Source: Ructibacterium sp. (GTDB lineage Bacteria; Bacillota; Clostridia; Monoglobales; Monoglobaceae). Taken from it: a DNA stretch of 64,000 nucleotides. The notes beneath the pieces were generated by a model. That model saw nothing but the letters and a program-made list of their open reading frames with translations, was not told the DNA's origin and did not search any database. The translations under genes were made by a program, and so were the position numbers. Location: positions 248 through 64,247 of the forward strand of contig JAZRQC010000037.1 in assembly GCA_045649565.1 (NCBI GenBank), written 5' to 3'. Shown in pieces: positions 32,325 through 57,971 of this stretch (position 1 is its first letter; the number at the start of each line of letters is the position of its first letter).

Positions 32325-35300
32325 TTAAAGTTCTTTTGAGAAGAAGTCCAGGGAGAATCTCAAACTATTCAACTGGAGACTACTCCAGGACTCGTAGGGA
32401 CTGACAACAATGGTGCCAAGCTTTTCGGATACATAGAATCCAAAGGCCTCTGCAAAGGCATTGATGTCAATGTAGAGCTTACCATTAAAGGTAGATACCT
32501 GCTCGGGAGAGAATACGATCTCGTTGCCAAGGCTATTGATCACCAGACCACCATCCTCGGAGGATGCGATGGTACCGCTGACATAAGCCGCTGCAACATC
32601 TGCCGCCACGCCATTTTCGTAAGCCGCCTCTTCCACTCTCTTGTTATTGAGGAGTGCAGAACCGCTTTCAGGATGGAGTACCAGAGTCTTTAAGAACTGG
32701 AAGTCATAAACTGTCCGAGTGTTCTCTGCGTGATTATCCTGACGAAGGTGAAGCTGTTCGAAACGGTTGGAGCCTACCTGCGCATCCTTCTGGAGGGCGA
32801 TGGTTCGACCGTACTGGGAACCACCAAAGCCATCATCGTAAGAAAATGCGTTACAGATAACCTGATTCTCGGTGATATGGATGTTGGTATTCATCATCGC
32901 ACCGATGGTACCCTGATTCTCGTGAACGGTACCAATAATCTGCCAGGTCTTCATACTGTCGGTACTTCTTGCAAAGGTCCAACGGGTTCTGGGATACTGA
33001 CCCTTACCAACAACGTTATCGTTATCGTAGCCAAACACCGCATATACGTGTTCAGGATTGTAGGGGTCAACCTCGACACTGTAACATACCTCAACGCTCA
33101 GGAGGGGCGTTACATATACGTTCTCGGTATCGAAGGTCTTACCACGGTCATAGGATCTGATGTAACCCAAGTAACCTAAGTTGGTTCTACCGAAGAGGTA
33201 CAGATCTCCGTTTGCCAGTTCCAGAGGAACCAACTCAACGAAGGTAATACCGGGGGTGTTGTGGCTCGCGCCTGCCAACTGGGTATTATCGATGGTGGTT
33301 TCAGAATCGTTCCAAGTGAGACCATAGTCATCACTGTAGAACACCTTAAGCTGCGCCCACCACTCGCAGGCAACGTCCGTGGTACATACCGCGTACAATC
33401 TACCGGAAGGAGCCAACTTGATACGGTTCTGCATTGCAGCATAGGTCATACCAATATGGTCTTCTTCTGCCAGTTTATCGGTACCATGACGTTCCCATGT
33501 CTTACCATTGTCATGAGAGATGTAGGGAATGAAGTTCCAGTACTGTTTTCCATCTTCACCAACGGACTGGAGTTCGGACTTAAGACCCAGAACATCGCCA
33601 TTGGGCAAAGAAACCAAGTTATCGCTGAGGGTGGTATAACTGGTATCCTGCACGAAGCTCTTACCACCGTCATCGGTTCTCCAAGCATTGGTATTTGCCA
33701 GAATGTAACTATCGCCACCCAAGTCAATCAGGTCAAGGTTTACGTTCAGGAAGGTCTCTCTTGCATCTGCAATAACCTTGGTATCACCACGATACTTGAA
33801 GTTATCCACGTATGCACTACCATCCTTCAGCACGAAACCGAACTTACCTCTCCAGTAAGAAGGAGAATCCTTCAAGGAGAGAACCTCTTCCCCGTTCACA
33901 TACAACGTAGCAGTCTTAACATCGTTTACCTTGCGAACCTTCAACGCCATATTTACCCATTCGCCGGTGGGGAAGTCACCCTTCTTTGCCACACGAACAT
34001 TCTGGGATGCACTGGTCTGAACATCCACAATCTCGAACTCACCGGTCTCGAAGTTGTAACCGGCTCTGGAATACGGATGGTTGGTAGCACGGTTAAAGTC
34101 GAACCAGAAGCCCTTGGCTCCGCTTACTACCTTAACATCTGCGCTGATATCAATATCACCACCGAATGCGGCAACATCCACAAAGGAGTACTTATCCGGT
34201 GCACCAAGAACCATGTACTGCTCCTTTTCATCAATGGATACGGAAATACCATTATCCTTGGAACGGTTCACATATCTCCACTGGGTCATGGTATCAAACT
34301 CGGTGTCTCCGGAGAAATCATCCTCGTAGTAGTATACGTCCTTATTATCGCCAACACATACATACTCAAAACCATCGCCGGAGGCTACATCGAACGCCGC
34401 AATACCCTCACCAACGGTGGGAACGCTACGGAAACTGAATACCCATCTGCCGTTGGCATAGAGTCTGGTCATACCAACTGCAGTCTCGGCACGGAGGTAA
34501 ATCTTACCGTCTGCATTTGCCCAATCGGCAAGTTTACCTGCTTCCTTACGGAAGGGTTCCATCATCTCGACCTTGGTGGTCCATACATATACAGTACCAT
34601 TTTCCACCTGCAGGTCGGTGCGGTAGTATTCATCGTTTACAACCAATCTACCTTCATCGGTTACGTCCAAAACCACATCCATTACGTGGTAGTTGGGCAG
34701 ATCACCTAAGTTGTATACCAGATTCTTTCCAACCATATTGGTGGTCTGGAAGTAGGTTGCTCTGTCATAACTGGGAACGATACTCTCATTAGAGATGGTC
34801 AAACCATCGGATACAAAACTCTTTTCCAGAGTCTTGGTCATAGGCATTACAAAAGCGAATACCATCTGACCATTGCGATATGCCTCAGCAAAGGGACCAT
34901 CGGTTACGATGATGAAATCACCAAGACCCTTGTCATAGGTCATCTCACCCTCGTCGGTCAGGTAGGTTACTCCATCTCTGGTGTGGGTCATCTTCAGCAG
35001 ATGTCTGCCATTTGCATAAGTGACCTCAGCCTGACCAAACTCGCCTACTACATTGTACTTGATTTCGTTGGCAAAGTTCTCGGAAGGTGCACTTTGATAT
35101 GCCTTACCTACCAACTGAACGGCATCCTCATATACAATGATACCGGATTCATTGTAGCAGATGGCTTCTAATGTGTGCTGCATGGGAGACAGTGCCGCCA
35201 GACTCATCTCATAGTAGGGACCCTGCTCGGCGGTGGCAACGGTGTTACCGTCCAGACGATACTCTACCTTGGTAATCTGGGGACGTCTGTCAAAGAACTC

Positions 35301-36845
35301 TAGGTTAGCAAACAGGTTGCCGTAATCGTCCTGACTGGTCTGGATTTCCGCCTTTACACCGGGAACCACAGAGAACTCTTTTTCCACCGCAACATAGTCA
35401 CCATACTCTGCAGAAACCTGATAGTTACCTGCAGACATACCGTTGATGACAGCCTTGTAATCAGGCGCCTGACCGGTTGCAACTGTTTTACCATTGATTT
35501 TGTAATCAAGATAAGGAATTTCGTCCTTCAAATCCGCCGCTACGTGTGCCGCCAATTCGATGGGATCATCTTCTAAGTACTCGGAACCGGCAATGGGATC
35601 ATCCACAACCACCTTATCCTTTACCAGCTCAACCTTAGTCCAGTCGATACTCAAACCTGAGAACATGGAACCGTTGGGGTAGGTAAAGTAGTAGGTCATA
35701 CCATTTCTGGGATGATTGTTGTTGTCCAATGCAGGCTCAACTGCAGTAATGGGAACATCGTCAATAAAGAGCTGGTTTCTGGTACCGCCACCGGTAACCT
35801 CTACCTTGTACTCGTACCATCTGTTTTCTTCCAGATGAATCTCGTTACTTCTTTTCATGCCGTAAGGAGTTTCAAACTCTACATACTCACGATAGATGTA
35901 ACCACGGAAAGAACCATTGGGCCAAGAGGGAATGATACCCTGCTGCTCACCAAACTTATCCATTCTGAAACGGGCAGTATAGGTGAAGTCCTGTCCTGCT
36001 TCTACTGCAAAGGGACCGTACAGAGAGAGCATCTTCAAGTCCTGTGTATTCCAGCTGGATGCAATACCATCTTTGATTTCCCAAGTTGCACGCTTTCTCC
36101 AACCTGCGTAATCATCCGGATTGTCAAACTCATAAAGAGTATCCTCGTTGGGAAGGGGCATATACTCCCAATCCTTTGCATCAAAGGTAGATGTGGTGGG
36201 CACGTCGCTCTGCTCGGTGTTACCGCCAATCTTTCTGCCGGTATACTTGTTAAACTTCATGTTACCGATCTTGTAGGACGCAGGACCACTATTCTGGGTT
36301 CTGGCAAGAATCTCGATACGACCCTGCTGATGGGTACTTGCCTCACCGCTGATGGTTCCTGCATAGTAACCGTCAATATACAAATCACCATAGTTACCAT
36401 CGGTAATCAACTGATAATGGTGCATCTCATAACCGATGTCATAAGGTGTTGTCAGGGATTCATACTGCGCTGTAGAGGAATAACCTCTGCACCAGATGTT
36501 ATCCAGATTAAAGTGCATATAAAATCTGTTCTTACCGGTGTAGAAAATAACCAGCTGAGAACCATTGTGCTTTAAAATCTGCAGATCAAATTCCACATCC
36601 ATCTGGGGCTTTACATTACCTGCATCCACCTTATAGATGGTCGCCAAATCGGCATCAGCGGTAGTTTTACCGGATGTCAAAGTAGCAAAACCGTCTTTTC
36701 TGGCTACAGTACCGGTACCATCAGGATAGCCAATGGTAAAACTGTCATACCATTCTACCTCTGCCGCGGAGGCGGTTACGCCAAAAGCCGCAAACAAAGA
36801 CACTGTCAGACAGAGTAAAGTAATAATTGATACTAATTTCTTCAT
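32325..36845 (-). CDS. C1: secreted multidomain protein (ConA/LamG-like modules, Ig-like repeats, Asp-box beta-propeller, C-terminal copper-amine-oxidase-N-like domain)
   Basis: 1506-aa ORF with signal peptide MKKLVSIITLLCLTVSLFAAFGVTASA. There are five Asp-box motifs: RTDDGGKSF, SHDNGKTWE, SDDYGLTWN, SYDRGKTFD and STDSMKTWQ. The RBS GAGGAGG lies 8 nt upstream, inside the B1 3-prime end. Confidence 0.85.
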   Translation of the reverse strand: MKKLVSIITLLCLTVSLFAAFGVTASAAEVEWYDSFTIGYPDGTGTVARKDGFATLTSGKTTADADLATIYKVDAGNVKPQMDVEFDLQILKHNGSQLVIFYTGKNRFYMHFNLDNIWCRGYSSTAQYESLTTPYDIGYEMHHYQLITDGNYGDLYIDGYYAGTISGEASTHQQGRIEILARTQNSGPASYKIGNMKFNKYTGRKIGGNTEQSDVPTTSTFDAKDWEYMPLPNEDTLYEFDNPDDYAGWRKRATWEIKDGIASSWNTQDLKMLSLYGPFAVEAGQDFTYTARFRMDKFGEQQGIIPSWPNGSFRGYIYREYVEFETPYGMKRSNEIHLEENRWYEYKVEVTGGGTRNQLFIDDVPITAVEPALDNNNHPRNGMTYYFTYPNGSMFSGLSIDWTKVELVKDKVVVDDPIAGSEYLEDDPIELAAHVAADLKDEIPYLDYKINGKTVATGQAPDYKAVINGMSAGNYQVSAEYGDYVAVEKEFSVVPGVKAEIQTSQDDYGNLFANLEFFDRRPQITKVEYRLDGNTVATAEQGPYYEMSLAALSPMQHTLEAICYNESGIIVYEDAVQLVGKAYQSAPSENFANEIKYNVVGEFGQAEVTYANGRHLLKMTHTRDGVTYLTDEGEMTYDKGLGDFIIVTDGPFAEAYRNGQMVFAFVMPMTKTLEKSFVSDGLTISNESIVPSYDRATYFQTTNMVGKNLVYNLGDLPNYHVMDVVLDVTDEGRLVVNDEYYRTDLQVENGTVYVWTTKVEMMEPFRKEAGKLADWANADGKIYLRAETAVGMTRLYANGRWVFSFRSVPTVGEGIAAFDVASGDGFEYVCVGDNKDVYYYEDDFSGDTEFDTMTQWRYVNRSKDNGISVSIDEKEQYMVLGAPDKYSFVDVAAFGGDIDISADVKVVSGAKGFWFDFNRATNHPYSRAGYNFETGEFEIVDVQTSASQNVRVAKKGDFPTGEWVNMALKVRKVNDVKTATLYVNGEEVLSLKDSPSYWRGKFGFVLKDGSAYVDNFKYRGDTKVIADARETFLNVNLDLIDLGGDSYILANTNAWRTDDGGKSFVQDTSYTTLSDNLVSLPNGDVLGLKSELQSVGEDGKQYWNFIPYISHDNGKTWERHGTDKLAEEDHIGMTYAAMQNRIKLAPSGRLYAVCTTDVACEWWAQLKVFYSDDYGLTWNDSETTIDNTQLAGASHNTPGITFVELVPLELANGDLYLFGRTNLGYLGYIRSYDRGKTFDTENVYVTPLLSVEVCYSVEVDPYNPEHVYAVFGYDNDNVVGKGQYPRTRWTFARSTDSMKTWQIIGTVHENQGTIGAMMNTNIHITENQVICNAFSYDDGFGGSQYGRTIALQKDAQVGSNRFEQLHLRQDNHAENTRTVYDFQFLKTLVLHPESGSALLNNKRVEEAAYENGVAADVAAAYVSGTIASSEDGGLVINSLGNEIVFSPEQVSTFNGKLYIDINAFAEAFGFYVSEKLGTIVVSPYESWSSLQLNSLRFSLDFFSKEL
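32780..33730 (-). other. Asp-box (BNR) beta-propeller region of C1
   Basis: The five S/T-x-D-x-G-x-T/S-W/F motifs are spaced 50-70 aa apart. Coordinates are approximate. Confidence 0.7.
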
Positions 36846-36848
36846 TGT

Positions 36849-39569
36849 TTACGCCTCCTCTACAATCACAAGTACATATTGGATATGACCACCGCGCTGG
36901 ATACTGATGGCCGCCTTTTGGTTGGTGTCGGGATCCATAGCATAGGTTACCAGATCCTTAGCACTACCCTGAGACACGGTGGGTTTACCATTGTTGTTTC
37001 TGTATACATAAATTACAGTACCATTATGCTTATAGTTATGAAGTTCATTGAACGCCTCAACACCATCCGGATCTTCCTTCACAGAAGTGGTATGGGTATA
37101 GATGTTATTCTCAAAACTTACCAAAGTACCATACATGGTTCTGAAGTTGTAATACAGGTTATGATAACCACCGTTACCACCACGGTTCTGAACACGGGTC
37201 TGATTGTGACCCAGAGAAACGTCAAAGAGAACCTCTACTGCCTGCACCACATTCTTTGCATTGGTCTGGAACTGAATAATATCACCGATGCTGATATCGG
37301 TATTATAAAGTTCATCCGACAGGGTAACCGTCTTTGAACCGGAAGGATGGGTAATATCCATCATTCGAACCGTCTGACCTTCCTCGTTCAGGGTATCATA
37401 GATATCAGAAATGATACTGGGCGCGTTGTATCTTAAGTCATTTGCCGCAGTATTGGTATCGTAGATCATCAGGTATTTTGCAACCTTAGTAAGCGGATCT
37501 ACATTGAATGCTTCTACTACGGGGTAGTGACCATCGATGATGGTAGAACGGAAGTATTCAACCTCGTCTCTGTCGTCCTGCAGAACACGCATTGCTCTGT
37601 TCATGCCAAGCGCAGTAAATATCAGCTCAGAACCTGCCTGATTGTAGAAACTGTTGGGATAGGAAGCATAAGCCAGTCTTCTTACCTCGGATTTTCCTGT
37701 CTCTGCAGGCTGGAGAGAATCTTCTCTCTCGTAATCACGCTCATAGATAATGGTGTCGATGTGAGTCAACATTCCCTCATCATTCAAGCGGAAACGAATG
37801 GGCTGAGCATAGGGGAATTCCGCATCACCATTCTTCATTCTGTCAAGTTCATTGTTGCCATCAGCATCTGCGGTACCCAGAGTCATATCGTCGTTGTAAG
37901 CACGAAGTGCATTAGCATCACTCAAACGCTGCATTGCCGCATCTACCTTGTTGTACTTGATTTCGTCCATGTAGAAGTTCTTGGTTGCGGCAAACTCGCG
38001 AATTTCGTAGTTCTGGTCAATCAGTCGAACGGAAAGTTCACCATTGAAACCGCCACCACTATTCCGAGCTCCCAACAGATATGCAAACTGATATACATCG
38101 TTGGAAGCATGCAGAATTACTGCCGCCGCGTCTCCATCAGGGTAGATGGAAACTGTCTCGCCCAGACGAACGGTTTCGTCAATAACAGTACCGGTAGTTA
38201 CCTTGTAGATGGTATCGTTTACGGTAATGGTATCATCCATGAAGGATGTAACCTGACCGGTAACAATATCTTCCATCTTGGTCATGGTAACCTTTACGGT
38301 TCCTGTGGTGTTCTTACTCTTACGATATCTCAAAACAGTACCTTCGGTCAGGGTACCCAGATTCACGGGACCATACTCACCGGTTAAGGTAATATCATTG
38401 ATCTGACCCTTACCGCCAATAGCAGAATCCTGGGGATACTTACCATAGAGAATCTTATTCTCCTTATCCTGACTCTGGTATACCATGTACTCGATATCGT
38501 CTACGGTAATCACATCGTAGAGTTCGTCATCATCGTTATCAATCAAGGTTATGGTACCGGTTGCAGGCTTTAAATCCTCATCATCAAAGCCGGGGAACGC
38601 AACACCATTCACAATCACGTCAGGAGCCAAAGCAAGCTTATAACCCTTATCCTTTGCGCCAACCCAATACTTAAGTTGACCATCTTCGATACCGATAACA
38701 TCTTCACCCTCGATGGTTACCATATTGTTTCTGGTTTCGTCTGCAAAGAGATAGAATATATCCTTTGCAGTGGAACTACCGTCTTTCTTGCTGTAGAAGT
38801 TTACATACTTACCAAGCAAGGTGGGATCATCCCAGTTAAAGATACGATTGTTAATCTGAATGGAACCTGCCGGAATCATATCGGTGGGTTCAATCAAGGT
38901 GGTGTACTGCACACCCTTTACGATGCCATCCTGCTTAACCAGACCGTGGTAGCACTCGATGGCAAGGAAGCCTTCGTTCTTCTTGAACTCCTTGGTATCA
39001 CCATAGGTAATTGCCTCGAACATATCTGCGTGCAGAGTATTGTATGCCATTGCCAGCGCCTCACCATAGGTTACAACGCCGTCCATGGTAACACCTTCGG
39101 TAATCTCCGCATCCCGAGCAATCCGCAGGAAGGACATATACTCCCCTGCTTCCTTATAGCCCAGGAGAACAGAAAACACCTTGCAGATTTCAATATCGGA
39201 AACGGTATCATTGGGACGGAAGTAGCCATCTCCGTCTCCGGAAAGAACACCCATCTGACCCAATGCATAGATGTCAGCAAAATAAGGATTATCTTCCATA
39301 ACATCATAGAAATAATAGTCCGTTCCTGTATATGCCGGTGCATTGGCAATCTTCGCACCTAAATGGGCCAACTCTCCTCTTGTCAACGCCTTGTCATAAT
39401 TGGGATTCTTCTCAGTTACGACTCCCAACACACGGAGCAGACCTTCCTGACCGGGGGTCAGGAGGCTGCCGGTTGCCGCAGATGCGGACATTCCGGTACA
39501 AACGGAAAGCGTGGTTGCCAAGACAGTAATGGCAACGATTGCACTAATTTTACGTAGTAATTTTTTCAT
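36849..39569 (-). CDS. B1: secreted protein with N-terminal SLH repeats and a ~700-aa unassigned body
   Basis: 906-aa ORF with signal peptide MKKLLRKISAIVAITVLATTLSVCTGMSASA. It has an SLH-type repeat FYDVMEDNPYFADIYALGQMGVLSGDGDGYFRPNDTVSDIE plus flanking degenerate repeats. The RBS AAGGGAG lies inside the A1 3-prime end. Confidence 0.8.
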   Translation of the reverse strand: MKKLLRKISAIVAITVLATTLSVCTGMSASAATGSLLTPGQEGLLRVLGVVTEKNPNYDKALTRGELAHLGAKIANAPAYTGTDYYFYDVMEDNPYFADIYALGQMGVLSGDGDGYFRPNDTVSDIEICKVFSVLLGYKEAGEYMSFLRIARDAEITEGVTMDGVVTYGEALAMAYNTLHADMFEAITYGDTKEFKKNEGFLAIECYHGLVKQDGIVKGVQYTTLIEPTDMIPAGSIQINNRIFNWDDPTLLGKYVNFYSKKDGSSTAKDIFYLFADETRNNMVTIEGEDVIGIEDGQLKYWVGAKDKGYKLALAPDVIVNGVAFPGFDDEDLKPATGTITLIDNDDDELYDVITVDDIEYMVYQSQDKENKILYGKYPQDSAIGGKGQINDITLTGEYGPVNLGTLTEGTVLRYRKSKNTTGTVKVTMTKMEDIVTGQVTSFMDDTITVNDTIYKVTTGTVIDETVRLGETVSIYPDGDAAAVILHASNDVYQFAYLLGARNSGGGFNGELSVRLIDQNYEIREFAATKNFYMDEIKYNKVDAAMQRLSDANALRAYNDDMTLGTADADGNNELDRMKNGDAEFPYAQPIRFRLNDEGMLTHIDTIIYERDYEREDSLQPAETGKSEVRRLAYASYPNSFYNQAGSELIFTALGMNRAMRVLQDDRDEVEYFRSTIIDGHYPVVEAFNVDPLTKVAKYLMIYDTNTAANDLRYNAPSIISDIYDTLNEEGQTVRMMDITHPSGSKTVTLSDELYNTDISIGDIIQFQTNAKNVVQAVEVLFDVSLGHNQTRVQNRGGNGGYHNLYYNFRTMYGTLVSFENNIYTHTTSVKEDPDGVEAFNELHNYKHNGTVIYVYRNNNGKPTVSQGSAKDLVTYAMDPDTNQKAAISIQRGGHIQYVLVIVEEA

Positions 39570-39574
39570 TGCCC

Positions 39575-42500
39575 TTATCTCCCTTCTACCATGTAATTAT
39601 AGATTCTGTAAATTGCTACAGCCGACTCTGCACGAGTTGCAGAAGCGTTGCCTTCGAAGTTATTATCACCCTTACCATTCATCAACTGTGCCTGAGCCAA
39701 AGCGGTAACACTTGCTCTTGCATAATCGGGAATGGTATCGAAATCGTCGAAGACATATGCCGCAACCTTCTTCTCGATGCCAATGTTCTTGTAGTCCATA
39801 ATCCGCTTGAGCATTACTGCCATGTCGGCTCTGGTAATCTTCTCACCAATACCGAAGGTAGTCTCGCTCATACCATTTACAATACCTGCCTCGTAAGCGA
39901 TTGCAATGTAGGGATAATACCATGCGTTTGCATCCACATCAGTAAATGCCATATCCACATTACCGTTACCCTTGATGCCTGCCGCTTGCAGAGCCATCTT
40001 CAGGAATTCTTCACGGGTTACTTCACGGTTAGGAGCAAAGGTGCCATCACCGTTACCGGAAATTACACCCATATTTCTCAGGGCCTTGATGGAATCCTTT
40101 GCCCAATCAACATCACCTAAATCGGAGAAGTCCTCAGGAAGGGTAACAGGAGCCTGACCACCAAAGGAACCGCCACCTGCAGCACCACCGCCACCAGTAT
40201 TCTCGAATCCGGTAGTACCCTGGAAGATGCCGGAACCAACGCTACCGCCACCTGCGGCACCACCACCTGCAGCACCACCGAAGCCTGCGCCGGTGTTGGA
40301 TTCTGCAGTCTTTTGTGCCGCAAGAGCACTCTGGAATGCTGCCAGAACGTCAGCTTCACTACTATAGCCACCGGTCATTCTCATAAAGAGTGCCTTCTTA
40401 TCGGAGATACCTGCCATACTTTCAACAGTAACGCCTAAGGTACCATCCATAACCAGATCCTGAACATCGGACCACTTACCATTCTTAGCAGCGGTGTTCA
40501 CGTCCAGACAGAACTGACGCTCGTGAACCTCGCCATTGGTTGCAACGTCCATAACATCACGGAAGTCATAGAGAGTTGCGAAGGTTGTGGCAGAACCCTT
40601 AGCATCCAAGAACCGTGCATATACGTCGGATGCAAAAGTCTCTTCTTCATTCCACTTCTTTGCGGTTTCACTACCGTAGCTATCAATGAAAGAACTCATG
40701 CTATTTACATCGGTAATAGTGTTATAGGGAATATCGTCACAGAAGAGTTCGATGTCGGTTGTTACCGCCTCGGCACTACCATACTGAACTCTTACAGTGT
40801 AGGTTCCGCTGGGACAGGAAGGATCTACTGCAACGGAAACATCCACCAGACCGGTACCGGAGGAGGTGGTCTGACCTACCGCACGGAGATTGCCGCCTTC
40901 GTCTACCACACTGATGGTAACTCTGCCGTTCCTGATACCGGTGTAACCGGTTACTCTGACGTCATTGTAGTTTGCCTCTGCTTTCACCCCAACCTGAGCA
41001 TCCTTTTTGGGAGCGCCGGTTGCATTGTTCTTGAGTGCCACACCTGCCATATCACCGAGGGGAATACCGGTTTCCAAAGTATCCCACAGCATTACTGCTG
41101 CAGTATCCTTGGTTTCGTCAACATTCTCGGTGACAAAGGTATTGGTCAGGTTTGCACCTCTACCGCTGAGTACTTCGTAATCCTTTGCCTTCACGAACTT
41201 GGTGTAGCCATAGGTTTCGTCGTATACTGCGGTGATCAAGGTTGCACGACGGTCATATCTGGATTCCAGAGTACCGGTGAAGTATTCACCACTGGTCTTT
41301 ACCAGACCGGATTCCAGAACAGGTTCGTCAACTCTCAGGTAGTCACCGGAGTAAACCTTAACATCGTCCACCTCGCCCGCCAAGCTACAATGGAATGCCA
41401 GCTTGTCGTTTGCCTCGGAACCGGGAACGAACTTGGTGTGGGTCTTAATCCACTCATCATCCCCTACCTTGTGCCAGTAAACATCAACATATGCATTGTC
41501 GGTCCAGGAGAAGAGAAGTTCTGCCCAGTTACCAACACCTGCCGCCGCCAAAGTATCACTCTTACCCACACCGGCAGTACGATTGATGATGAAGACAGAG
41601 TCATCATGGCAGTCGATGGCGATTTTGTTACCGTTGTTTACCATATCACAGGACATAACAGATTCTGCAGTGGGAATTCTGTACTTAAAGCGTACGAACC
41701 ACTGACCCTTGGGGTTCACCTGACTCAAATCAACATCCAGACGGGAAGAATTGGGGTAAGAGGTGTGAGGCTCTGCGTCGGGGTCTCTCTTGAACACACC
41801 ATCCTCAATTTTACCGGTGATCATATTGTGAATTCCAGTATCCTCGGAGAAGTCCTCATCGATGTATACACGATTGGTCATGGTCGCAATGGCATTGGGG
41901 TCGGTCAATACCATTCTTTCAATCTTATATTGCTTTACTTCAGACAGGGTTACCTTGTTCGCGGTGGTGTTTGCAAAGAGGACACCATAGAAGCCTGCAG
42001 TACGGAAACCATTGGAGGTCACACGGAGGGTCCACTCGGTTTCACCGTCCAGCTTGGTCCATACCATAAAGTTGGAACTGTCACGGGTTACCAGGTAGTT
42101 CACCCAACCGGTACCGGGCGCAAAGTCTTTTGCCTGGGTCTGGCTGGTACCCTGAACAATCAGCTTTTCGGGGTACAGATAGATGCTTGCTCTGGGATTA
42201 GCATTGAGCTGAACATCCAACATACTGCCCGCGTCCAGTTTCGCACGGAACATCACAGGATTTTCCTTGGTCAGAGGCTTCCAGGAATTCTCGGTACCGG
42301 AGTTCCATGCAAAGTACTTACCTGCAGTCTGCACCAGTTCCAATCCGTTTGCGCCAACGGTGGGCTGTTCCTCTGCCACTTCGCCACTTTGTACATTCTT
42401 GAGCTGTGCATTGGCTTCGATACCATTGAAGTTAGCGTCGAATACCAGTTCTTCCTTGGCAACTGCAATACCGCCGATGATATCCTCAATGGTCATCTTG

Positions 42501-45286: not shown

Positions 45287-45483
45287 AAAGATTCACTCCT
45301 TTGATGAATTTATAATGTATGTTTAATTATATTTACTAAGTAATATAGTATCAGACACCCTCATTTGAAACAAGGTCCTAATCTTGCATTTTTCGGTTTT
45401 TCCCTGATACAAAAGACATTTCAGGTGAATTTAAATCTTTTCTGTTATTTCATACCGAGACAACACACCTATTTTGCAACAAT

Positions 45484-45512
45484 ATTTTAACATAATCAAC
45501 AAAAAGGGTCAA
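45484..45512 (-). promoter_or_regulatory. predicted promoter of cassette 1
   Basis: On the minus strand: TTGACC, 17-nt spacer, then extended -10 TGtTAAAAT. This implies a 5-prime UTR of roughly 190 nt. Confidence 0.4.
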
Positions 45513-45769
45513 CTACTGATTGTGCTTTTTTATAAACATATTATGCTTTTTTAGGAAAGTTCTGCTCACCCTTCCATAAATATAGCCCACAGGACGTTTT
45601 TTTCATTCTCTCTCCTTATAAAATATTCACAATCTGCAAAAAGAAAAAATAACCCATTATCATCACGATTCTAACACAAACATATTTAAATGTCAACTCA
45701 ATTGAGGTAATGTTTTTAACTCAAAAGCGGTAGACTAAGAGTAACAAAACTCTTTGGAGGTAGGATCTC

Positions 45770-46012
45770 ATGAATATTGGAGATGCGGTTCGGCTTCGGA
45801 TTTTGGATTTATGCAAAACACAAGGCATTACCGTTAATAAACTGGCTACACGAAGCGGTGTGACCCAATCCACCTTGAACAATATTACCGGCGGACGAAA
45901 CAACAGCGCCACCATTTCCACCATTAAGAAATTGTGTGACGGCTTGGAGATTAGCATTTTGGAGTTCTTCTCCTCCCCCTTATTTGAGCATTTGGAGCAG
46001 GAAATTAAATAA
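45770..46012 (+). CDS. XRE (Cro/CI) family helix-turn-helix transcriptional regulator
   Basis: 80 aa with a GGAGG RBS. The HTH is ITVNKLATRSGVTQSTLNNITGGRN. It is divergent from A1. Confidence 0.85.
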   Translation: MNIGDAVRLRILDLCKTQGITVNKLATRSGVTQSTLNNITGGRNNSATISTIKKLCDGLEISILEFFSSPLFEHLEQEIK

Positions 46013-46049
46013 AAAGAATCCCAATCAAAAAGATTGGGATTCTTTTTTT
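46011..46049. terminator. bidirectional intrinsic terminator (XRE gene / cassette 2)
   Basis: 13-bp stem aagaatcccaatc / gattgggattctt, loop aaaaa, with T- and A-runs on both sides. The T-run overlaps the C2 stop codon. Confidence 0.85.
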
Positions 46050-50523: not shown

Positions 50524-50526
50524 TGT

Positions 50527-53232
50527 TTACGCCTCCTCCATAATTAAAATATATTCCAGATAACCACCACGTCTTACACAGGTTACCGCCTTTTGGTTGG
50601 TATCCTTATCCATGGTGTAGGTTACCATATCTTTTACACTACCCTGACGGATTTCCATCTTTCCGCCCACCGTCTTACAAACGTAGATTTTGGTGCCGTT
50701 GTTCCGATAGTTGTGGAACTCATTGCATGCCTCTACCCCGTCATTGTCCTCCTTCACCGAGGTGGTGTGAGAGAACACATTACCGTCATAGTGATATAAG
50801 GTTCCGTAAGACACACGATAATTGTAATAAAGGTTATGATATCCGCCCGTACCGCCTCGGGTTGCTACACGGGTCTGGTCCTTGCCCAAACTCTTGTCAA
50901 ACATCACTGATGCCGCCAGCATGAGGTTTTTGTCATTAACCTCTACCTGAATCACATCACCCACATCAATATCGGTTCGAATCTCCGGGGGCATGGTAAC
51001 CGTCTTGGAATAGTTCGGATGGGCAAGATCCACCTTCCGAACGATGTTTCCGTCCTCATCCATGGTGTCATAGATATCCGTTACGATACAAGGAGGATTG
51101 GATTGAACAACGTTGTCTACCGCCTTGTCGTAAACCACCACATATTTGGCAACCTTGTTGTAAGGATCTAAGTTAAAGGCTTCTACCACGGGGTAATATC
51201 CGTCGATGATTTCTTCACGGAATCCTTCTGTCTCGTCCCGATCCACCTGCTGAATCCGAAGTGCTTGGTAGATATCACTTGCCGTAAACACCATTTCGGT
51301 TCCTGCATTGTTGTAAAAACTGTGGGGAGCGGAGGCAAACGCCAATCTTCTTACCTCGGAAACGCCGGTCTTTGCAGGTTGCAAAGAATCTTCTGTTTCG
51401 TAATCGGATTCGTAAATCATGGTATCCAGATGGGTCAGTTCCCCTGCATCATTCAGGCGGAACCGAACGGGTTGCGCATAGGGGAAGTCTGCATCTCCCG
51501 TCTGCATACGATCCAGATCATTCAAGCCGTTTTTGTCCACTTCACCCAATTCCATATCCTCATGATAGGTACGAAGACTATTGGCGGTCAGCAACCGTTC
51601 CAACATTGCATCTACCTTGGTATACTTGATTTCATCCAGATAGATGTTGGATGCTGCCACGTACTCTTTTAACATGTAGTTACGATCAACCACCCGAATG
51701 GACAACTTTCCGTTGAAGCCACCACCTGCATTTCTTGCACCGGTCAGGTAACCAAACTGGTAACTGTCATTGGAGGCATGGAGAATCACCGCCGCCAAAT
51801 CCTGATCAGGGTAAACCGAAACCGTTTCTCCGATACGAACTGTTTCATCAATAACAGTACCGTTGTTGATGGTATATTCCTTGCCTGCAACGGTAATCTT
51901 ATCCTTCAAAAATGCCGTAACCTGACCTGTTACACAGGTTTCAATCCGACTCATGGAAATCTTACGGATTCCCATTGTATTCTTACTGCTCTGAACCCGA
52001 AGTACATCGCCGGTCACCAAGGTTCCCACATTGATACGACCATAAGGACCTGTCATAACAATCTCATTTTTTACTTCCTTATCTCCGATGGCAACCTGAG
52101 GATATTTGCCGTAGAGAATCTGATTTTCCTTATCCTGACTGTCATAAACCACATATTCCACCGAATCAATAACAATCACATCATAAATATCATCATCATT
52201 GTTATCAATCAAGGTAACGGTTCCCGAGGGAGGCTTCAAATCCTCCTCGGTCGCAGTAGGATAGGCAACACCATTTAAAATGGTGTCATGTGCCGCTGTG
52301 AGTTTATAGCCTTTCTCCTTGGCGCCAACCCAATACTTCAACTGACCCTCACGAATACCGATGACATCGGTTCCCTCGATGGTTACGATGTTGTTCCGTT
52401 CTTCGTCGGGGTAGATATATTCAATATCCTTTGCAGTGGAATCTCCCTCTCGCTTACTGTAGAATACCACATATTTACCAAGCAGAGTTTCATCATCATA
52501 GCGGAATAAACGATTCCCAATCATGATTTCGCCTTCAGGGATATTGATATCGGGTTTAATCAAGGTGGTGTATTGTACACCTTCTACGATACCTTCTTGT
52601 CTTACCAAACCGTGATACCGCTCCATGGCAAGATACCCTTTTTGAACTTTATAGGTTCTCTCTTCTCCGTAGGTTGTAGGTTCCAGCATCTCTGCCATCA
52701 GAGTGTTATACGCCATAGAAAGCGCCTCTCCATAGATAACTACGCCATCCATTACCACCCCATCGGTTACACCTGCTTCCCGTGCGGTACGAAGATAACC
52801 CTCAAACTGACCGACTTCTTTATAACCCAATATCACAGAAAAGATTTTACTTGCCTCTTCTTCTGTAATGCCGTCATGGGGACGGAAATAGCCGTTACCG
52901 TCTCCTGAGAGAACCCCCTGCTGAACCAGACTATGAATTGCACCATAGTAGGGACTTTTCGCATCCACATCATAGAACTTGGTACCTTCCCCGGTATAGG
53001 CAGGAAGATTCATCACCTGAGCCGCCATTACGGCCAGTTCGCCACGATTAACACTTTTGTGATAATCAGGAGCATCCTCCGACACAATCTCAAGATGCCG
53101 AAGCAATCCTTCCTGACCATCATTTAACATACTGCCGCTTTCCACCGCAGAAACACCAAGTCCTGCCGAAAGCATGGTTGCCAAAAGGGTAATGGCAACG
53201 AGAGCACTAATCATCTTGTTATATTTCTTCAT
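50527..53232 (-). CDS. B2: paralogue of B1 (N-terminal SLH repeats plus unassigned body)
   Basis: 901 aa with signal peptide MKKYNKMISALVAITLLATMLSAGLGVSA. The SLH repeat is FYDVDAKSPYYGAIHSLVQQGVLSGDGNGYFRPHDGITEEE. It is collinear with B1. Confidence 0.8.
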   Translation of the reverse strand: MKKYNKMISALVAITLLATMLSAGLGVSAVESGSMLNDGQEGLLRHLEIVSEDAPDYHKSVNRGELAVMAAQVMNLPAYTGEGTKFYDVDAKSPYYGAIHSLVQQGVLSGDGNGYFRPHDGITEEEASKIFSVILGYKEVGQFEGYLRTAREAGVTDGVVMDGVVIYGEALSMAYNTLMAEMLEPTTYGEERTYKVQKGYLAMERYHGLVRQEGIVEGVQYTTLIKPDINIPEGEIMIGNRLFRYDDETLLGKYVVFYSKREGDSTAKDIEYIYPDEERNNIVTIEGTDVIGIREGQLKYWVGAKEKGYKLTAAHDTILNGVAYPTATEEDLKPPSGTVTLIDNNDDDIYDVIVIDSVEYVVYDSQDKENQILYGKYPQVAIGDKEVKNEIVMTGPYGRINVGTLVTGDVLRVQSSKNTMGIRKISMSRIETCVTGQVTAFLKDKITVAGKEYTINNGTVIDETVRIGETVSVYPDQDLAAVILHASNDSYQFGYLTGARNAGGGFNGKLSIRVVDRNYMLKEYVAASNIYLDEIKYTKVDAMLERLLTANSLRTYHEDMELGEVDKNGLNDLDRMQTGDADFPYAQPVRFRLNDAGELTHLDTMIYESDYETEDSLQPAKTGVSEVRRLAFASAPHSFYNNAGTEMVFTASDIYQALRIQQVDRDETEGFREEIIDGYYPVVEAFNLDPYNKVAKYVVVYDKAVDNVVQSNPPCIVTDIYDTMDEDGNIVRKVDLAHPNYSKTVTMPPEIRTDIDVGDVIQVEVNDKNLMLAASVMFDKSLGKDQTRVATRGGTGGYHNLYYNYRVSYGTLYHYDGNVFSHTTSVKEDNDGVEACNEFHNYRNNGTKIYVCKTVGGKMEIRQGSVKDMVTYTMDKDTNQKAVTCVRRGGYLEYILIMEEA

Positions 53233-53237
53233 TGCCT

Positions 53238-56200
53238 TTATCTCCTTTCTGCCATATAGTTATAGATTCTGTAAATAGCCACCGCAGACTCTGCACGAGT
53301 TGCAGAAGCATCGCCTGCAAAACAATTGTTTCCCACACCGTTCATCAGTTCTGCTTGTGCAAGCAAATCAACACTTTCTCTTGCATACTGAGGAATGGTA
53401 TTAAAGTCCGCAAAGACAAAAGGCGCAATGGTTTCTTCCACTTGGATTCCCTGATGATCCAGAATCCGCTTGATGATAACCGCCATGTCTGCTCTTGTAA
53501 TCTGTTGACCGATACCGAAGTATTCTTCACTCATGCCATTGACGATACCAACCTGATATGCCATTGCCACATAGTCGTAATACCACGCATCTTTATCCAC
53601 ATCCAAGAAGGAAGCATCTCCTATCGCTTTGTTGGAAATTCCGGCCGCCTGCAACGCCATCTTCAGGAACTCCTCACGAGTGACCGCCCGATTGGGTGCA
53701 AAGGTGCCGTCTCCGTTTCCGTTAACGATTCCCATATTCCGCAGAGCCAGAATGCTTTCTTCTGCCCACGGAACGGAAGTTAAATCTCCGAATTCTTCCG
53801 GCTTTATTTCAGGTGTCTGCACCGAACCGCCAACACCGCCGCCACCGGCAACAGGACCGCTTACCGTTGCTCCGGTACTGTCGTACTTATTACCGGGTGC
53901 TATCGCACCACCACCGCCTGCACCGCCACCGCCGACAGCGCCGCCACCGACGTTACCTGTGCTTGCCTCGGCTTGTTTTTGTGCCACAACTGCACTGCGG
54001 AAACCTGCCAGAACTTCGTCCGCGCTTGTATAGTCAGAACCCATCCGCAAGAAGAGTTGCTTTTCGTTTTGGATACCTGCAATATCTGCAATACTGATGC
54101 CCAAAACTTCTCCGTACGTATGCAAAAGAAGATTCTGAACATCTGCCCATCTGCTCTCTTTTGCGGCTTCATTAACACGTTTACAAAGTTCCCGCTCCTG
54201 CACTTCGTCGTTGGTTGCAACGTCAATCACTTCACGGAAACGATAGAGACTGTCAAAGGTAACCACATTCCCCTTTTCCTCCAGATAACGTGCATAAACG
54301 TCAAATGCGAAATCGGATTCTGCGTTCCATTTCTTTGCAGTTTCACTTCCGTATTGGTTCAAAAATGCCCCCATGCTTGCCGCATCATGAATGGCATTAT
54401 AAGGAATGTCGCCACAGAAGAGTTCCACCTGTGTTTCAGATGCCACCGCATTACCATACTGAACCCTTACCGTATAGGTTCCGCTGGCACAATCAGGATT
54501 TACTGCAACGGTGGTATCTACCAGTCCTGTCGCTGTTGCAACAGTCTGTCCTGCACCGCAAAGAACTCCCTCGGCATCGGTTACGCTGATGGTAACCCGA
54601 CCATTTCTCACACCAATATTACCCACAACACGAATATCATTGTAGTTGGCTTCTGCATTCACCGAAACACCTGCTCCTGCTTCGAGAGCGCCGGATGCAC
54701 GATTCTCAAGGGCTGCTCCTGCCATATCTCCCAAGGGGATTCCTGTTTCAATGGTATCCCAAAGCATAACAACTGCCTTGTCCTCGTTCTCGTCCACATC
54801 AGTTGTGCTGAAGGTGTTGGAAAGATTTACCCCTACACCGCTTGCCACTTCATAATTCTTTGCTTTGACAAACTTGGTATATCCGTACTCCTTATCGTAA
54901 ACCGCAGTAATCAAGGTTGCTCGTCTGTCATACGGAGTGTCCAATGTACCGGAGAAGAATTCACCATTCGTCTTAACAACGCCTGATTCCAGTTCAGGCT
55001 CCTCAATTACCAGATAATCTCCGGCATAAATCTTAAGATCATCAAATTGTGCACTCATTCCTGCATGAATTTCCAGATTATCTCTGCCACTGGAACCGGG
55101 GACAAAGGCGGTATTCGTTTTCATCCATTCATCCTCGCCAACCTTATGCCAGTAAACATCCACCTTATCATTATCCGTCCACGCAAAGAGCAGTTCCGCC
55201 CATTGATTGGTCCCAAGCGGTGTGTCTTTTCCCACCGCATAGTTTGTGGTTCTGTTATGAAGTACTACCTTCGTTGAAGTTGCATCAATGGCAATTTTTG
55301 CCCCGTTGTTCTGCATATCAACAGAAATAACAGAATCACTTGTGGGAAGCATATACTTGTAACGGATAAACCATTGTCCCTTTGGATTGATGGTACCCAT
55401 ATCCACCACCAAACGACTCAGATCGGGATAAGATGGGTTGGGTTCTGCATCGGGATCTCTTTGGAATACACCATCTTCAATCTTACCGGTGATGATATCG
55501 TAATCTCCTCTGTCCTCCGAGAAATCTTCGTCCAGATACACCGTGTTGGTCATAGACGCAATCACAGAGGTATCCTTCAGTACCGCACGTTCACTCTTGT
55601 ATTGTTTCACAGTGGATACATACGCCTTTGCCGTGGTGGTGTTATCCAACAGAACACCATAAAAACCTGCGGTACGGAATCCGTTGGAGGTTACCCGTAC
55701 TGTCCACTTGGTTTCTCGGTCTGTTTTGGTATAGACGGTAAAATTACTTCCGTTTTGAGTTACCAGATAATTCACCCAATCGGTACCGGGAACAAAACCC
55801 TCCGCTACCTTCTGGTCAGAACCCCACGCCACAAGTTTCTCCGGATAAACATAGATGCTTGCTCTGGGATAACCATTCATCTGTACCCCCAACGCAGCCC
55901 CCGTGTCCACCTTGGCACGGAACATAACCGGATTGGCTGTCGTTAATGGTTTCCACGCATTTACACTGCCGGAACCCCATGCGAAATAAAATCCGCCTGT
56001 TTCCTTTAACTCCAAACCATGCTCACCCACGACGGGTTGCTCAGCTGCAACATTGCCGTTGGATACATTCATCAGTTGTGCATTCTCATCCACGCCATTA
56101 AAGTTGCTGTCAAATACCAACTCCTCTTTTACCACAGCCACACCTTCAACAATTTCATCCAAGGTGAACTGTTCTCCTGCCTGAGGGCCTTCCGGCTCAG

Positions 56201-57704
56201 GCAATTCTTCCTGCGTTCCATACATACTGATGTATTTGATAAACCCTTTTCCCTTTTCCGAGTATAATGACACACCAAGATTGGGGCCGCCACCGGGACG
56301 ATAGGATGCGGTAGATGCAATCTTCGTCCAGTCGGCATCTTCTGCACTCTTGGCATAAACATCATAACCGCCACCGTCATTCACACACAGAGCATAGTCA
56401 TGCCATTGGTTTTGAGGCACATAGTCTACCAGTTTGGTTGCACCTTGGAAGCCACCCTCGCCGTTACTCTCATAGATTGTCAGACCGGTTTCACTGATAA
56501 CTATATATGCTCTTTGTGATACGTTGGTAGGACTGGTAATCTCCAGATGAATCTTCTCTTCCGCTCCTACCTTGACACCAAGGGTTATACCCTTACTGGA
56601 AAGAGGCGTGTATCCACTTGCGGGCAGATATTTCCATATGCTATCTGCCGGAATGGTTAATCCCATGGTATCAGAATAGGTCGCACTACTCGGAGAGGTA
56701 ACACCGGTCTGCGCTTGATCAAAATCACCGGAGAACTGAAAATCCTTAATTTTTACCGCATCTTCACCCAATACATATCCAATGTTTCCTTGGGCTCCGT
56801 CATAGGGATCATCCGTTCCGGGAGTTTCTCCGCCCTGACCGGGATCGGGAGTTTCTCCGCCCTGACCGGGATCGGGTGCTTCTCCACCCTGACCGGGATC
56901 AGGTGCTTCTCCACCCTGACCGGGATCGGGTGTTTCACCGCCTTGACCGGGGTCGGGGTTCGGGTTTCCACCCTCTACCTGAAAACAAACAGAATATGCG
57001 AGACAGGCGTTTGCCGCATCGAATCTTCCGCCATAGGTGGTCCAACACTTGTTGTTATAGTTGGAGTTACTGTTTTTTGCGGCTACTGCCTCAATTACTT
57101 TGGTATAAGCAGTATCGGATGCTTTTTTCATATAAACTTCGTAGGCACTGGTGCCGTCACAAGTAATCAACACATCGTTCCAATCCGTTCCGCAAGAATA
57201 TTCTGCAACCATGGCAGAAGATGCTTTGGAACTAACCGAAATATACGTAGGCGCAAAGGTAAGTTCAGAAATGGTGTTATCCCATCCGGTGGTGGCTGTA
57301 CTGATCAACCAACCATTGGAATCCAATTTGAAACGGAATCCCCATGTTCCTAAGTTAAGAGGAGACCAATAAGCATTTCCCGTATCCGGCACCGTATACT
57401 TAATAGGAGAACTGTAATATAAATTACCTGAACTTCCAAACATGGCACCGCCAACAGAGTCGTAGGTCACACCGGACGTAGTCAATCCTACCACCGAAGA
57501 ATCAAACTCACCGGTAAAATCCAGATTCATGGCACCCCAATCCTGAGTCCCCGGATGCGCCTCTGCCTTTTCCGCACCCAGCACAGCGCCGATGGCATTC
57601 AAAAGTCCATCGTCAATTACCGCTGCCGATACAGAAATTCCGGGAATCAACCCCGTTATCATTACAGTGCAAATCAGGCATGCTAACAAACGTTTTAGCT
57701 TCAT
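53238..57704 (-). CDS. A2: paralogue of A1 with four ConA/LamG-like modules and three C-terminal SLH domains
   Basis: 1488 aa with RBS AAGGAGTGG and signal peptide MKLKRLLACLICTVMITGLIPGISVSA. Its modules match A1 modules 2, 4, 5 and 6. The SLH triad spans about 53241-53801. Confidence 0.85.
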   Translation of the reverse strand: MKLKRLLACLICTVMITGLIPGISVSAAVIDDGLLNAIGAVLGAEKAEAHPGTQDWGAMNLDFTGEFDSSVVGLTTSGVTYDSVGGAMFGSSGNLYYSSPIKYTVPDTGNAYWSPLNLGTWGFRFKLDSNGWLISTATTGWDNTISELTFAPTYISVSSKASSAMVAEYSCGTDWNDVLITCDGTSAYEVYMKKASDTAYTKVIEAVAAKNSNSNYNNKCWTTYGGRFDAANACLAYSVCFQVEGGNPNPDPGQGGETPDPGQGGEAPDPGQGGEAPDPGQGGETPDPGQGGETPGTDDPYDGAQGNIGYVLGEDAVKIKDFQFSGDFDQAQTGVTSPSSATYSDTMGLTIPADSIWKYLPASGYTPLSSKGITLGVKVGAEEKIHLEITSPTNVSQRAYIVISETGLTIYESNGEGGFQGATKLVDYVPQNQWHDYALCVNDGGGYDVYAKSAEDADWTKIASTASYRPGGGPNLGVSLYSEKGKGFIKYISMYGTQEELPEPEGPQAGEQFTLDEIVEGVAVVKEELVFDSNFNGVDENAQLMNVSNGNVAAEQPVVGEHGLELKETGGFYFAWGSGSVNAWKPLTTANPVMFRAKVDTGAALGVQMNGYPRASIYVYPEKLVAWGSDQKVAEGFVPGTDWVNYLVTQNGSNFTVYTKTDRETKWTVRVTSNGFRTAGFYGVLLDNTTTAKAYVSTVKQYKSERAVLKDTSVIASMTNTVYLDEDFSEDRGDYDIITGKIEDGVFQRDPDAEPNPSYPDLSRLVVDMGTINPKGQWFIRYKYMLPTSDSVISVDMQNNGAKIAIDATSTKVVLHNRTTNYAVGKDTPLGTNQWAELLFAWTDNDKVDVYWHKVGEDEWMKTNTAFVPGSSGRDNLEIHAGMSAQFDDLKIYAGDYLVIEEPELESGVVKTNGEFFSGTLDTPYDRRATLITAVYDKEYGYTKFVKAKNYEVASGVGVNLSNTFSTTDVDENEDKAVVMLWDTIETGIPLGDMAGAALENRASGALEAGAGVSVNAEANYNDIRVVGNIGVRNGRVTISVTDAEGVLCGAGQTVATATGLVDTTVAVNPDCASGTYTVRVQYGNAVASETQVELFCGDIPYNAIHDAASMGAFLNQYGSETAKKWNAESDFAFDVYARYLEEKGNVVTFDSLYRFREVIDVATNDEVQERELCKRVNEAAKESRWADVQNLLLHTYGEVLGISIADIAGIQNEKQLFLRMGSDYTSADEVLAGFRSAVVAQKQAEASTGNVGGGAVGGGGAGGGGAIAPGNKYDSTGATVSGPVAGGGGVGGSVQTPEIKPEEFGDLTSVPWAEESILALRNMGIVNGNGDGTFAPNRAVTREEFLKMALQAAGISNKAIGDASFLDVDKDAWYYDYVAMAYQVGIVNGMSEEYFGIGQQITRADMAVIIKRILDHQGIQVEETIAPFVFADFNTIPQYARESVDLLAQAELMNGVGNNCFAGDASATRAESAVAIYRIYNYMAERR
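56823..56957 (-). repeat. 5 x 27-nt in-frame tandem repeat encoding (PDPGQGGE[T/A])5 in an A2 linker
   Basis: The units are 56931-56957, 56904-56930, 56877-56903, 56850-56876 and 56823-56849. The last two are identical, and the middle two differ at one base. Confidence 0.95.
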
Positions 57705-57928: not shown

Positions 57929-57971
57929 ATTGAATAGTTGATATATTATGCTTTTTGGAAAGGAGTTCATC

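Follow-up and report, generated by a model that had tools for sequence, protein, structure and literature searches.

A tandem pair of three-gene cassettes for large secreted proteins in a Ructibacterium-like gut Clostridium, and their possible role in glycan utilization

Architecture of the two cassettes

The window analyzed here is a 64,000-nucleotide stretch of a Ructibacterium sp. assembly (GCA_045649565.1, contig JAZRQC010000037.1, positions 248 to 64,247) that carries two copies of a three-gene cassette for large surface proteins, designated A, B and C. Both cassettes lie on the minus strand in the order A-B-C, and all six open reading frames (ORFs) are intact. In cassette 1, A1 (39575–45286) encodes 1903 residues and is a paralog of A2 with three additional N-terminal repeat modules. 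B1 (36849–39569) encodes 906 residues, comprising a trimer of S-layer homology (SLH) motifs at residues ~39–180 (window 39030–39455) and an all-beta body at 181–906, while C1 (32325–36845) encodes 1506 residues, with a sialidase-fold propeller at ~1020–1380 (window 32706–33788) and a C-terminal domain at ~1381–1506. In cassette 2, A2 (53238–57704, 1488 residues) consists of about four repeat modules of ~200 residues, an Ig-like/helical region, a Gly-rich linker and three C-terminal SLH motifs. It is followed by B2 (50527–53232, 901 residues), which has an N-terminal SLH trimer and an all-beta body of ~720 residues from an unnamed family, and by C2 (46048–50523, 1491 residues), in which DUF1080/LamG-like modules, two Big_7 domains, a LamG module, a sialidase-fold propeller and a small C-terminal domain are strung together without any SLH motif.

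The initial annotation, made from the sequence alone, described a common gene order, 5-nt (A-B) and 3-nt (B-C) intercistronic gaps in both cassettes, and one terminator after each C gene, and all of this holds. The terminator 3' of C1 is a hairpin on the minus strand (32294–32314) with a 9-bp stem, six GC pairs and a T tract; the one 3' of C2 (46011–46047) has a 16-bp stem and is bidirectional, serving also a small XRE-type ORF that reads toward it. The six N-termini, when read individually, likewise have the features of the Sec signal peptides that had been predicted, with a Lys-rich stretch, then a hydrophobic one, then a site of the A-x-A type.

The junctions between the genes are themselves conserved. 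The last codons of A, GAA-(A/G)GG-AGA-TAA, form the Shine-Dalgarno sequence for B, and are followed by five nucleotides and the ATG. This overlap of ribosome binding site and coding sequence is kept in 17 cassettes, down to ~35% identity in B. Among the closer cassettes the B-C junction is preserved as well, reading GAGGAGGCG-TAA-ACA-ATG. Such junctions are a sequence signature of translational coupling, and A, B and C are, as far as sequence can demonstrate it, secreted proteins of one tightly coupled operon.

The A proteins

Both A proteins end in three SLH motifs, matched by Pfam as three stretches (E 6e-36 in A1 and 2.9e-32 in A2). In A1 these occupy residues ~1716–1903 (window 39578–40141), and each contains one motif of the TRxE type (TREE, TRAD and TRAE). 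The three-motif SLH domain is the module for binding to pyruvylated secondary cell-wall polymer.

The rest of the protein is a repeat array. With BLASTP, none of the three proteins showed internal repeats; profile-profile comparison revealed those in A: five homologous modules of ~200 residues in A1, at 28–240, 262–505, 525–705, 715–920 and 925–1125 (hhalign probability 98–100%), set apart by linkers of Gly, Pro and Thr, and a sixth, more distant module at 1125–1325. Outside the SLH motifs, A has no Pfam match at E<=1, even when cut into modules, and the NCBIfam matches of A and B are confined to the SLH region. The profile of the A module has no match among PDB sequences at E<=10, nor among Pfam families. 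By these comparisons the ~200-residue module is an undescribed repeat. The suggestion that A is built from ConA/LamG-like modules is not borne out, as there is no detectable similarity in Pfam or in PDB profiles, and no hhalign link above 50% probability connects the A modules to the LamG/DUF1080 modules of C.

(The G+C content rises to 0.50–0.52 at window 40000–44000, inside A1, compared with ~0.45 elsewhere. The rise matches the Gly/Ala/Thr-rich modules and linkers and is no sign of foreign DNA.)

The B family

By sequence, B shows just a weak SLH match in Pfam (E 2.2e-9 for B2). The AlphaFold2 model of B1, built from 39 homologs, reaches a predicted local distance difference test (pLDDT) score of 83.6 and has a helical N-terminal domain at residues 39–180 and an all-beta body of ~720 residues. 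This model superposes on the SLH trimer of SpaA with a Foldseek probability of 1.0 and a TM-score of 0.7. Foldseek also matched the whole model to DDB1, with a TM-score of ~0.1 and a root-mean-square deviation of ~27 Å; these are regarded as spurious matches between beta-rich proteins, and only the SLH matches are meaningful.

The body of B has no match in the PDB by sequence or by profile, and in Pfam it is matched only by DUF5666, in 11 of 31 family members. An exhaustive search with a hidden Markov model of the body, from which the SLH region had been removed, retrieved 1809 representative clusters at E<=1e-3 and 733 at E<=1e-10, the clusters being defined at 50% identity. Nearly all of them are 850–930 residues long, with the body beginning at residue ~180–215, and those sampled are either unnamed or titled just "S-layer homology domain-containing protein". 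By this search, the B body represents an unnamed family that comprises no fewer than 1,800 such clusters.

The C proteins

In contrast to A, the modules of C are recognizable. Pfam identifies Big_7 domains, Laminin_G_3 or 3keto-disac_hyd modules, and BNR_2 with Asp boxes (in C2, Big_7 at 7e-14, BNR_2 at 4e-12 and 3keto-disac_hyd at 3e-7), in accordance with the LamG-like modules, Ig-like modules and Asp-box propeller that had been read from the sequence. NCBIfam gives no match. The initial annotation saw no catalytic glycoside hydrolase (GH) signature in any of the six proteins, which goes too far, since the C propeller is clearly related to the GH33 sialidases. A profile of the C family matches NanJ, NanI, NanB and NanA in the PDB, with E values down to 8e-18, over blades 2–4; blades 5–6 have no detectable sequence similarity to these enzymes. 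The AlphaFold2 model of C1 residues 1010–1506 (pLDDT 77) is a six-bladed sialidase fold that Foldseek relates to many GH33 structures with a probability of 1.0.

Conservation within the family is concentrated in the same region. Across 22 homologs, down to 23% identity, five Asp boxes and a GR(L) motif are preserved, along with E1161, E1204, R1220, Y1268, D1274, R1286, N1319 and R1347. Among these, E1204 and R1220 of C1 align with E539 and R555 of NanI, while R1286 fits the third Arg of the arginine triad by spacing only. Ahead of blade 1, in a segment of low pLDDT, is an invariant R1019-G-D1021. A homology search with the propeller alone gave a single weak match, P0062. C is a divergent GH33-related protein whose catalytic residues are only partly conserved, and for which "sialidase" is too strong a label.

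A wall-binding module had been assigned to all six proteins, and this is correct for the C-terminal SLH motifs of A and the SLH trimer of B, but not for C, where the proposed copper-amine-oxidase-N-like domain stays below threshold. Cu_amine_oxidN1 (PF07833) matches the C-terminus of C1 with 15 bits, short of the 24.2 set as cut-off (E 0.025), and does not match C2; in the family as a whole, three of 15 homologs give a match, all sub-threshold, the best at E 0.0073. A profile of the C-terminal domain finds chance-level matches only in the PDB (myosin, E 0.01), and Pfam recognizes neither SLH motifs nor any other wall-binding module in C.

Divergence of the two copies

The paralogs are 56.5% (A), 61.2% (B) and 57.3% (C) identical in protein sequence, within the range of half to two-thirds that had been estimated by eye. 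BLASTP gives similar values for B (61%) and C (56%), and for A finds 60% identity over the C-terminal 1205 residues but only ~26% between the N-termini, A1 being longer by 415 residues. At the DNA level, identity in codon-level alignments is 61–64%, and the longest identical runs are 23 nt in A, 18 nt in B and 20 nt in C, the last of these agreeing with an earlier figure of about 20 nt. Synonymous divergence (dS) is saturated, at 2.1–3.0, and the ratio of nonsynonymous to synonymous divergence (dN/dS) lies between 0.11 and 0.18. The duplication is therefore old, as had been proposed, and both copies have been kept intact under purifying selection. That the copies are antigenic variants, on the other hand, finds no specific support.

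Recurrence in other genomes

A 12-sequence alignment of the B family was scanned against one genome per species, yielding 55 loci, in all of which ORFs were called and compared with A, B and C. One metagenome-assembled genome (MAG), that of Ructibacterium sp. SGB_4831, placed by NCBI in the Oscillospiraceae (Clostridia), has B1 at 99%, B2 at 97% and C2 at 94% identity, and carries ~12 B paralogs on separate contigs. The DNA of the window is therefore that of the same species or of one very closely related to it. Wherever the flanks exist, in ~20 loci from several species, the order of a C-terminal-SLH protein, B and C is kept, so the triad does co-occur outside this genome. Its hosts include several Ructibacterium species bins and other uncultured gut Clostridia (from water deer, from a Hadza human, and UMGS1326), and it is also found in a Monoglobaceae MAG in which B is only 23% identical. 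No named operon family with this architecture was found in Pfam, NCBIfam, the PDB or the papers searched on Ructibacterium, on Monoglobus with SLH, or on SLH together with sialidases and polysaccharide utilization loci (PULs), in line with the initial view that the system had no name.

The loci also bear on the history of the pair. The species SGB_995 (locus L001) has the same tandem cassettes followed by the same importer, and in the similarity matrices cassette 1 of the window is closest to the cassette of L010; the tandem duplication thus predates the split of these species. Over 16 cassettes, the similarity matrices of A (without SLH), B (without SLH) and C are congruent (Mantel rho 0.82, 0.62 and 0.74; p ~5e-4), which indicates that the cassettes duplicated and diverged as units.

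Beyond the triad itself, the company it keeps is consistent. Two permease genes and a gene for a solute-binding protein come right after A-B-C in seven loci (L001, L010, L018, L020, L022, L023 and L024), and AraC genes flank the cassette in nine loci other than that of the window. Where the relatives of B are more distant (<=28% identity), B is preceded by another kind of SLH protein, for example one with aBig_2, F5/8C and SLH domains, and the neighbors are recognized carbohydrate-active enzymes (CAZymes) along with the same kind of importer. Three of these loci (L004, L031 and L034) encode heparinase-II/III-like lyases with CBM96, F5/8C and SLH domains, and a metagenome contig from the Joint Genome Institute (JGI) encodes CBM_4_9 proteins of 709 and 2021 residues (the latter with a faint WbsX-like match), a GH3 enzyme and a PIG-L protein. 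The enzyme slot varies while the pair of SLH protein and B is conserved.

The distant relatives of B also include the locus of the cultured type strain Ructibacterium gallinarum DSM 107454 (L037, 1903–21225), in which two GH10 xylanases with N-terminal Cu_amine_oxidN1 domains are followed by an SLH protein of 571 residues and a B-family protein of 870 residues, with a GH94 phosphorylase nearby. In two Ructibacterium MAGs (L002/L015 and L007, ~3000–21300), the cassette is expanded to an extra A-like protein without SLH (1221–1223 residues), A, B, C and a shorter second C, with two AraC genes and a trehalase/MGH1-like glycoside hydrolase ahead of it.

Control elements and gene neighborhood

Each cassette was initially credited with a promoter and a divergent regulator of its own. 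The regulators are there in both cases: an AraC-family gene (57948–58766, plus strand; HTH_18 at 2e-16, and HTH_AraC) diverges from A2, and a helix-turn-helix (HTH) ORF of the XRE type (45770–46012, plus strand, 80 residues), with weak NCBIfam matches to HTH proteins of the SlrR/PuuR type, lies between the cassettes and diverges from A1. The promoter is found only for cassette 1, as a promoter-like site at 45668–45696 (minus strand) with TTGACA, a 17-nt spacer, TAGAAT and a TG extension, matching the consensus at 11 of 12 positions. It lies ~380 nt 5' of the A1 start, implying a long leader, and Rfam recognizes no element in the window, including this ~380-nt leader (45287–45696). Upstream of A2, the promoter scan found no consensus promoter, and inspection by eye suggests just a weak -35 with an extended -10. 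The XRE ORF is missing from the corresponding 320-bp gap of the syntenic SGB_995 locus, and so cannot be counted among the conserved components of the system.

Cassette 1 is directly followed by a CUT1-type ABC importer (25700–31061, minus strand; Pfam BPD_transp_1 and SBP_bac_1/8), consisting of two permeases (30117–31061 and 29186–30136; BPD_transp_1) and two solute-binding proteins of ~540 residues each (27519–29126 and 25700–27352; SBP_bac_1/8). The functional link to this importer that was proposed at the outset is backed by the synteny in seven loci described above. The same cannot be said of the GH78-like alpha-L-rhamnosidase (720 residues) and GFO/IDH/MocA oxidoreductase genes at 17313–20774 (minus strand), which had been drawn into the same scheme: they are parted from the importer by genes for MatE, SpoIIGA and a MurA-like protein (the last on the plus strand), on mixed strands, and show neither contiguity nor conserved linkage. 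The GH78-like gene is probably outside the transcription unit of the cassettes.

The gap of 1.26 kb between C1 and the importer contains an ORF of 103 codons (31601–31912, minus strand) with a signal peptide of the A type. Its first 22 residues are 82% identical to residues 1–22 of A1, and it is 36% identical to A2 over 67 residues; it has the look of a truncated 5' fragment left over from a third A gene. The counterpart of this gap in the syntenic locus of SGB_995 measures only ~500 bp.

Elsewhere in the window, an SLH protein with a Peptidase_M15_4 domain (1907–3622, minus strand), resembling D-Ala-D-Ala carboxypeptidases, indicates that the organism uses SLH anchoring more generally. A csaB-like gene is not present within the 64 kb. 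A cluster at 3677–12066 (minus strand) encodes an HpcH/HpaI aldolase, an aldo-keto reductase, a lactonase-like Amidohydro_2 protein, a class-III aminotransferase, an AMP-binding enzyme and a GFO/IDH/MocA oxidoreductase, and is accompanied by another AraC regulator (12176–13030, plus strand); together these resemble a non-phosphorylative route for the catabolism of deoxy-sugars or sugar acids. An origin in a phage or other mobile element, or a toxin/RHS system, was considered and rejected, as no such families are present and both flanks are made up of housekeeping genes, such as those for AddA, SpoIIGA and a MurA-like protein. A sortase-anchored adhesin was rejected for lack of LPXTG-type matches. 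The initial annotation had already noted no cohesin, dockerin, LPXTG, RHS or pilin module, and indeed none of these families is matched in the six proteins by Pfam or NCBIfam.

Possible function of the cassette

What is the cassette for? The best-supported reading, and a somewhat probable one, is that it constitutes the surface module of a Gram-positive PUL, anchored through SLH domains and serving glycan capture and processing in a Ructibacterium-like gut Clostridium. A would be held on the wall by its C-terminus, projecting a variable array of three to six repeat modules outward for the capture of glycan, while B, held by its N-terminus, may act as a conserved accessory or scaffold partner in a fixed ratio to A. 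C, having no SLH motif of its own, would be kept near the surface via A and B or via its C-terminal domain, where it would bind and probably cleave the glycan. The neighboring permeases and two lipoprotein-type binding proteins would then take up the freed oligosaccharides, under the control of AraC regulators. The tandem pair, together with ~ten more paralogous cassettes elsewhere in the genome, would be old duplicates specialized for different glycans.

Several observations weigh against this proposal. The top structural match to the C propeller is 5hx0, an uncharacterized BNR protein, and no RIP motif is found in C. In the low-confidence hhalign alignment to P0062, the position of the nucleophilic Tyr of GH33 is occupied by M or N, with the invariant N1319 nearby, so the Tyr/Glu nucleophile pair appears to be incomplete, with the Glu (E1204) kept and the Tyr replaced. 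Judged by its residues, C cannot be assigned any catalytic activity. Neither the A modules nor the B body match a known carbohydrate-binding module (CBM) in Pfam or the PDB, and glycan binding by A and B is purely inferential. Nor is a gene for a cytoplasmic glycosidase or an ATPase visible in the locus, within the window.

Some of the same facts would suit a system of adhesins or lectins, in which the cassettes form a multivalent, wall-anchored organelle for attachment to host mucus, plant fiber or other bacteria, the C propeller is a non-catalytic sugar-binding domain, and the paralogs represent binding specificities. C seems to lack both the RIP motif and the nucleophilic Tyr, the beta-rich repeats of A form a long series with Gly/Pro/Thr linkers, as in many adhesins, and the proteins are very large and devoid of recognizable catalytic domains. 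However, the cassette is found consistently beside a sugar ABC importer and AraC regulators, and in distant relatives true enzymes (GH10 xylanases and heparinase-II/III-like lyases) stand in for its third gene. The charged residues E1161, E1204, R1220, D1274, R1286 and R1347, invariant down to 23% identity, also fit an active site or ligand site for acidic sugars, and adhesion as the main function is accordingly judged unlikely. Still less probable is that A and B are alternative S-layer or envelope lattice proteins, duplicated for surface variation in evasion of phages or the immune system, with C as an associated envelope protein. Classical S-layer proteins such as Sap, EA1 and SbsB do share the overall architecture and size of B, the PDB sequence matches of B are only to Sap and other SLH proteins, and there are many diverged paralogs per genome. 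But the similarity to Sap stops at the SLH region in both sequence and profile searches of the PDB, and no assembly domain is found among the 50 Foldseek matches listed for the B model. Some twelve cassettes with their own AraC regulators and sugar importers resemble substrate-inducible loci and not a single abundant lattice protein. Diversifying selection is not indicated by the dN/dS of 0.11–0.18. Neither an invertible promoter nor a recombination cassette was seen, the evidence on repeats consisting of diverged blastn matches between the cassettes, with no dedicated repeat search.

A different question is whether the proteins form a physical complex. With the same role in nutrient acquisition, A, B and C might act independently as surface or secreted proteins, being merely co-transcribed. 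In two of the distant loci (L004 and L034) the enzyme bears its own SLH domain and so can do without anchoring by A or B. In the triads, by contrast, C lacks a recognized wall-binding module, the genes keep a strict order with conserved junctions for translational coupling, and A, B and C diverge together. Independent action is judged less likely than not.

Glycan foraging in Bacteroidota is understood through the SusC/D hallmark genes, which make PULs easy to find. To our knowledge, there is no equivalent PUL marker in Gram-positive gut bacteria, and the surface steps are poorly known. The loci described here point to a large unannotated B family and an unrecognized A repeat module, which stand in a fixed, translationally coupled order ahead of variable enzymes and sugar importers, with about a dozen such loci per genome in a gut lineage that has been little studied. 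A bolder proposal, offered tentatively and with considerable doubt, is that the pair of SLH protein and B is the hallmark of widespread, undescribed Gram-positive glycan-utilization machines, a functional counterpart of the SusC/D utilisome of Bacteroidota. A, B and the following enzyme would then assemble on the wall into a defined, tethered complex, from which oligosaccharides pass to an ABC importer dedicated to it, B-family genes could serve to find such loci in gut bacteria of the Oscillospiraceae and Monoglobaceae types, and C would represent a new class of sialidase-fold enzyme that acts on acidic sugars by a non-Tyr mechanism. If the glycan-utilization reading is right, it would provide a marker for such loci, with C a candidate new sialidase-fold enzyme family, and the cultured R. 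gallinarum DSM 107454, with its B-family locus beside GH10 xylanases, a tractable point of entry. If it is wrong, the proteins are still among the largest uncharacterized surface proteins of the lineage.

Relation to known systems

The closest parallel is the Gram-positive PUL (gpPUL), defined as a locus with a polysaccharide-degrading enzyme, a transporter and a regulator (Sheridan et al. 2016, PMC5320581). Like gpPULs, the present locus combines secreted, apparently carbohydrate-directed proteins with a CUT1 importer and an AraC regulator, in many diverged copies per genome of a gut Firmicute. Set against that definition (PMC5320581), transport is represented by the two permeases and two solute-binding proteins, and regulation by the AraC gene and the XRE ORF, two of the three features. 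For the third, the degrading enzyme, C is no more than a candidate, with a GH33-related fold and partly conserved catalytic residues; true GH10 and polysaccharide lyase (PL)-like enzymes occur in distant B loci. The differences are that gpPULs as described do not have conserved hallmark surface proteins, whereas here a fixed, coupled pair of SLH protein and B precedes the enzyme slot, and that the "enzyme" in the window, C, belongs to no assigned CAZy family.

Anchoring of this kind has a precedent in Paenibacillus sp. JDR-2, in which SLH-anchored multimodular enzymes release oligosaccharides at the wall, where ABC transporters import them at once, in what has been called a "vectorial" model; Clostridium and Caldicellulosiruptor are cited there as related SLH-anchored cases (PMC4765114). 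Large wall proteins with triple SLH domains are found beside substrate-specific ABC transporters in both systems. In JDR-2, however, the SLH domains, CBMs and catalytic module are on one polypeptide, while here anchoring (A and B) and the enzyme-like C are on separate genes, and neither A nor B has a known CBM or GH domain. The cellulosome scaffoldins (OlpB/SdbA) are similar in that non-catalytic, SLH-anchored proteins organize enzymes on the surface of Clostridia; a cellulosome proper was rejected, as Pfam and NCBIfam find no cohesin or dockerin in A, B or C. For C itself, the GH33 sialidases NanI, NanJ, NanA and NanB provide the comparison: the six-bladed propeller, the Asp boxes, the GRL motif, and the alignment of the active-site Glu and second Arg are shared, but C differs from them in the RIP motif, the Tyr position and blades 5–6, and its propeller is embedded in a 1500-residue protein with DUF1080, LamG and Big_7 modules.

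By analogy only, the locus also recalls the Sus-like systems of Bacteroidota, with a conserved surface pair beside variable enzymes, an importer and a regulator, and with many paralogs. There is no homology between the two, and no outer membrane is involved; SLH domains provide anchoring to cell-wall polymer, and an ABC transporter the import. On the whole, the system is less exotic than the "undescribed cell-surface system" it was first taken for, since it follows the logic of gpPULs and of SLH-anchored processing with new protein families. What is new is that the surface layer is split over three coupled genes, that two of these belong to undescribed families (the body of B and the repeats of A), and that the pair of SLH protein and B is conserved whereas the enzyme slot varies.

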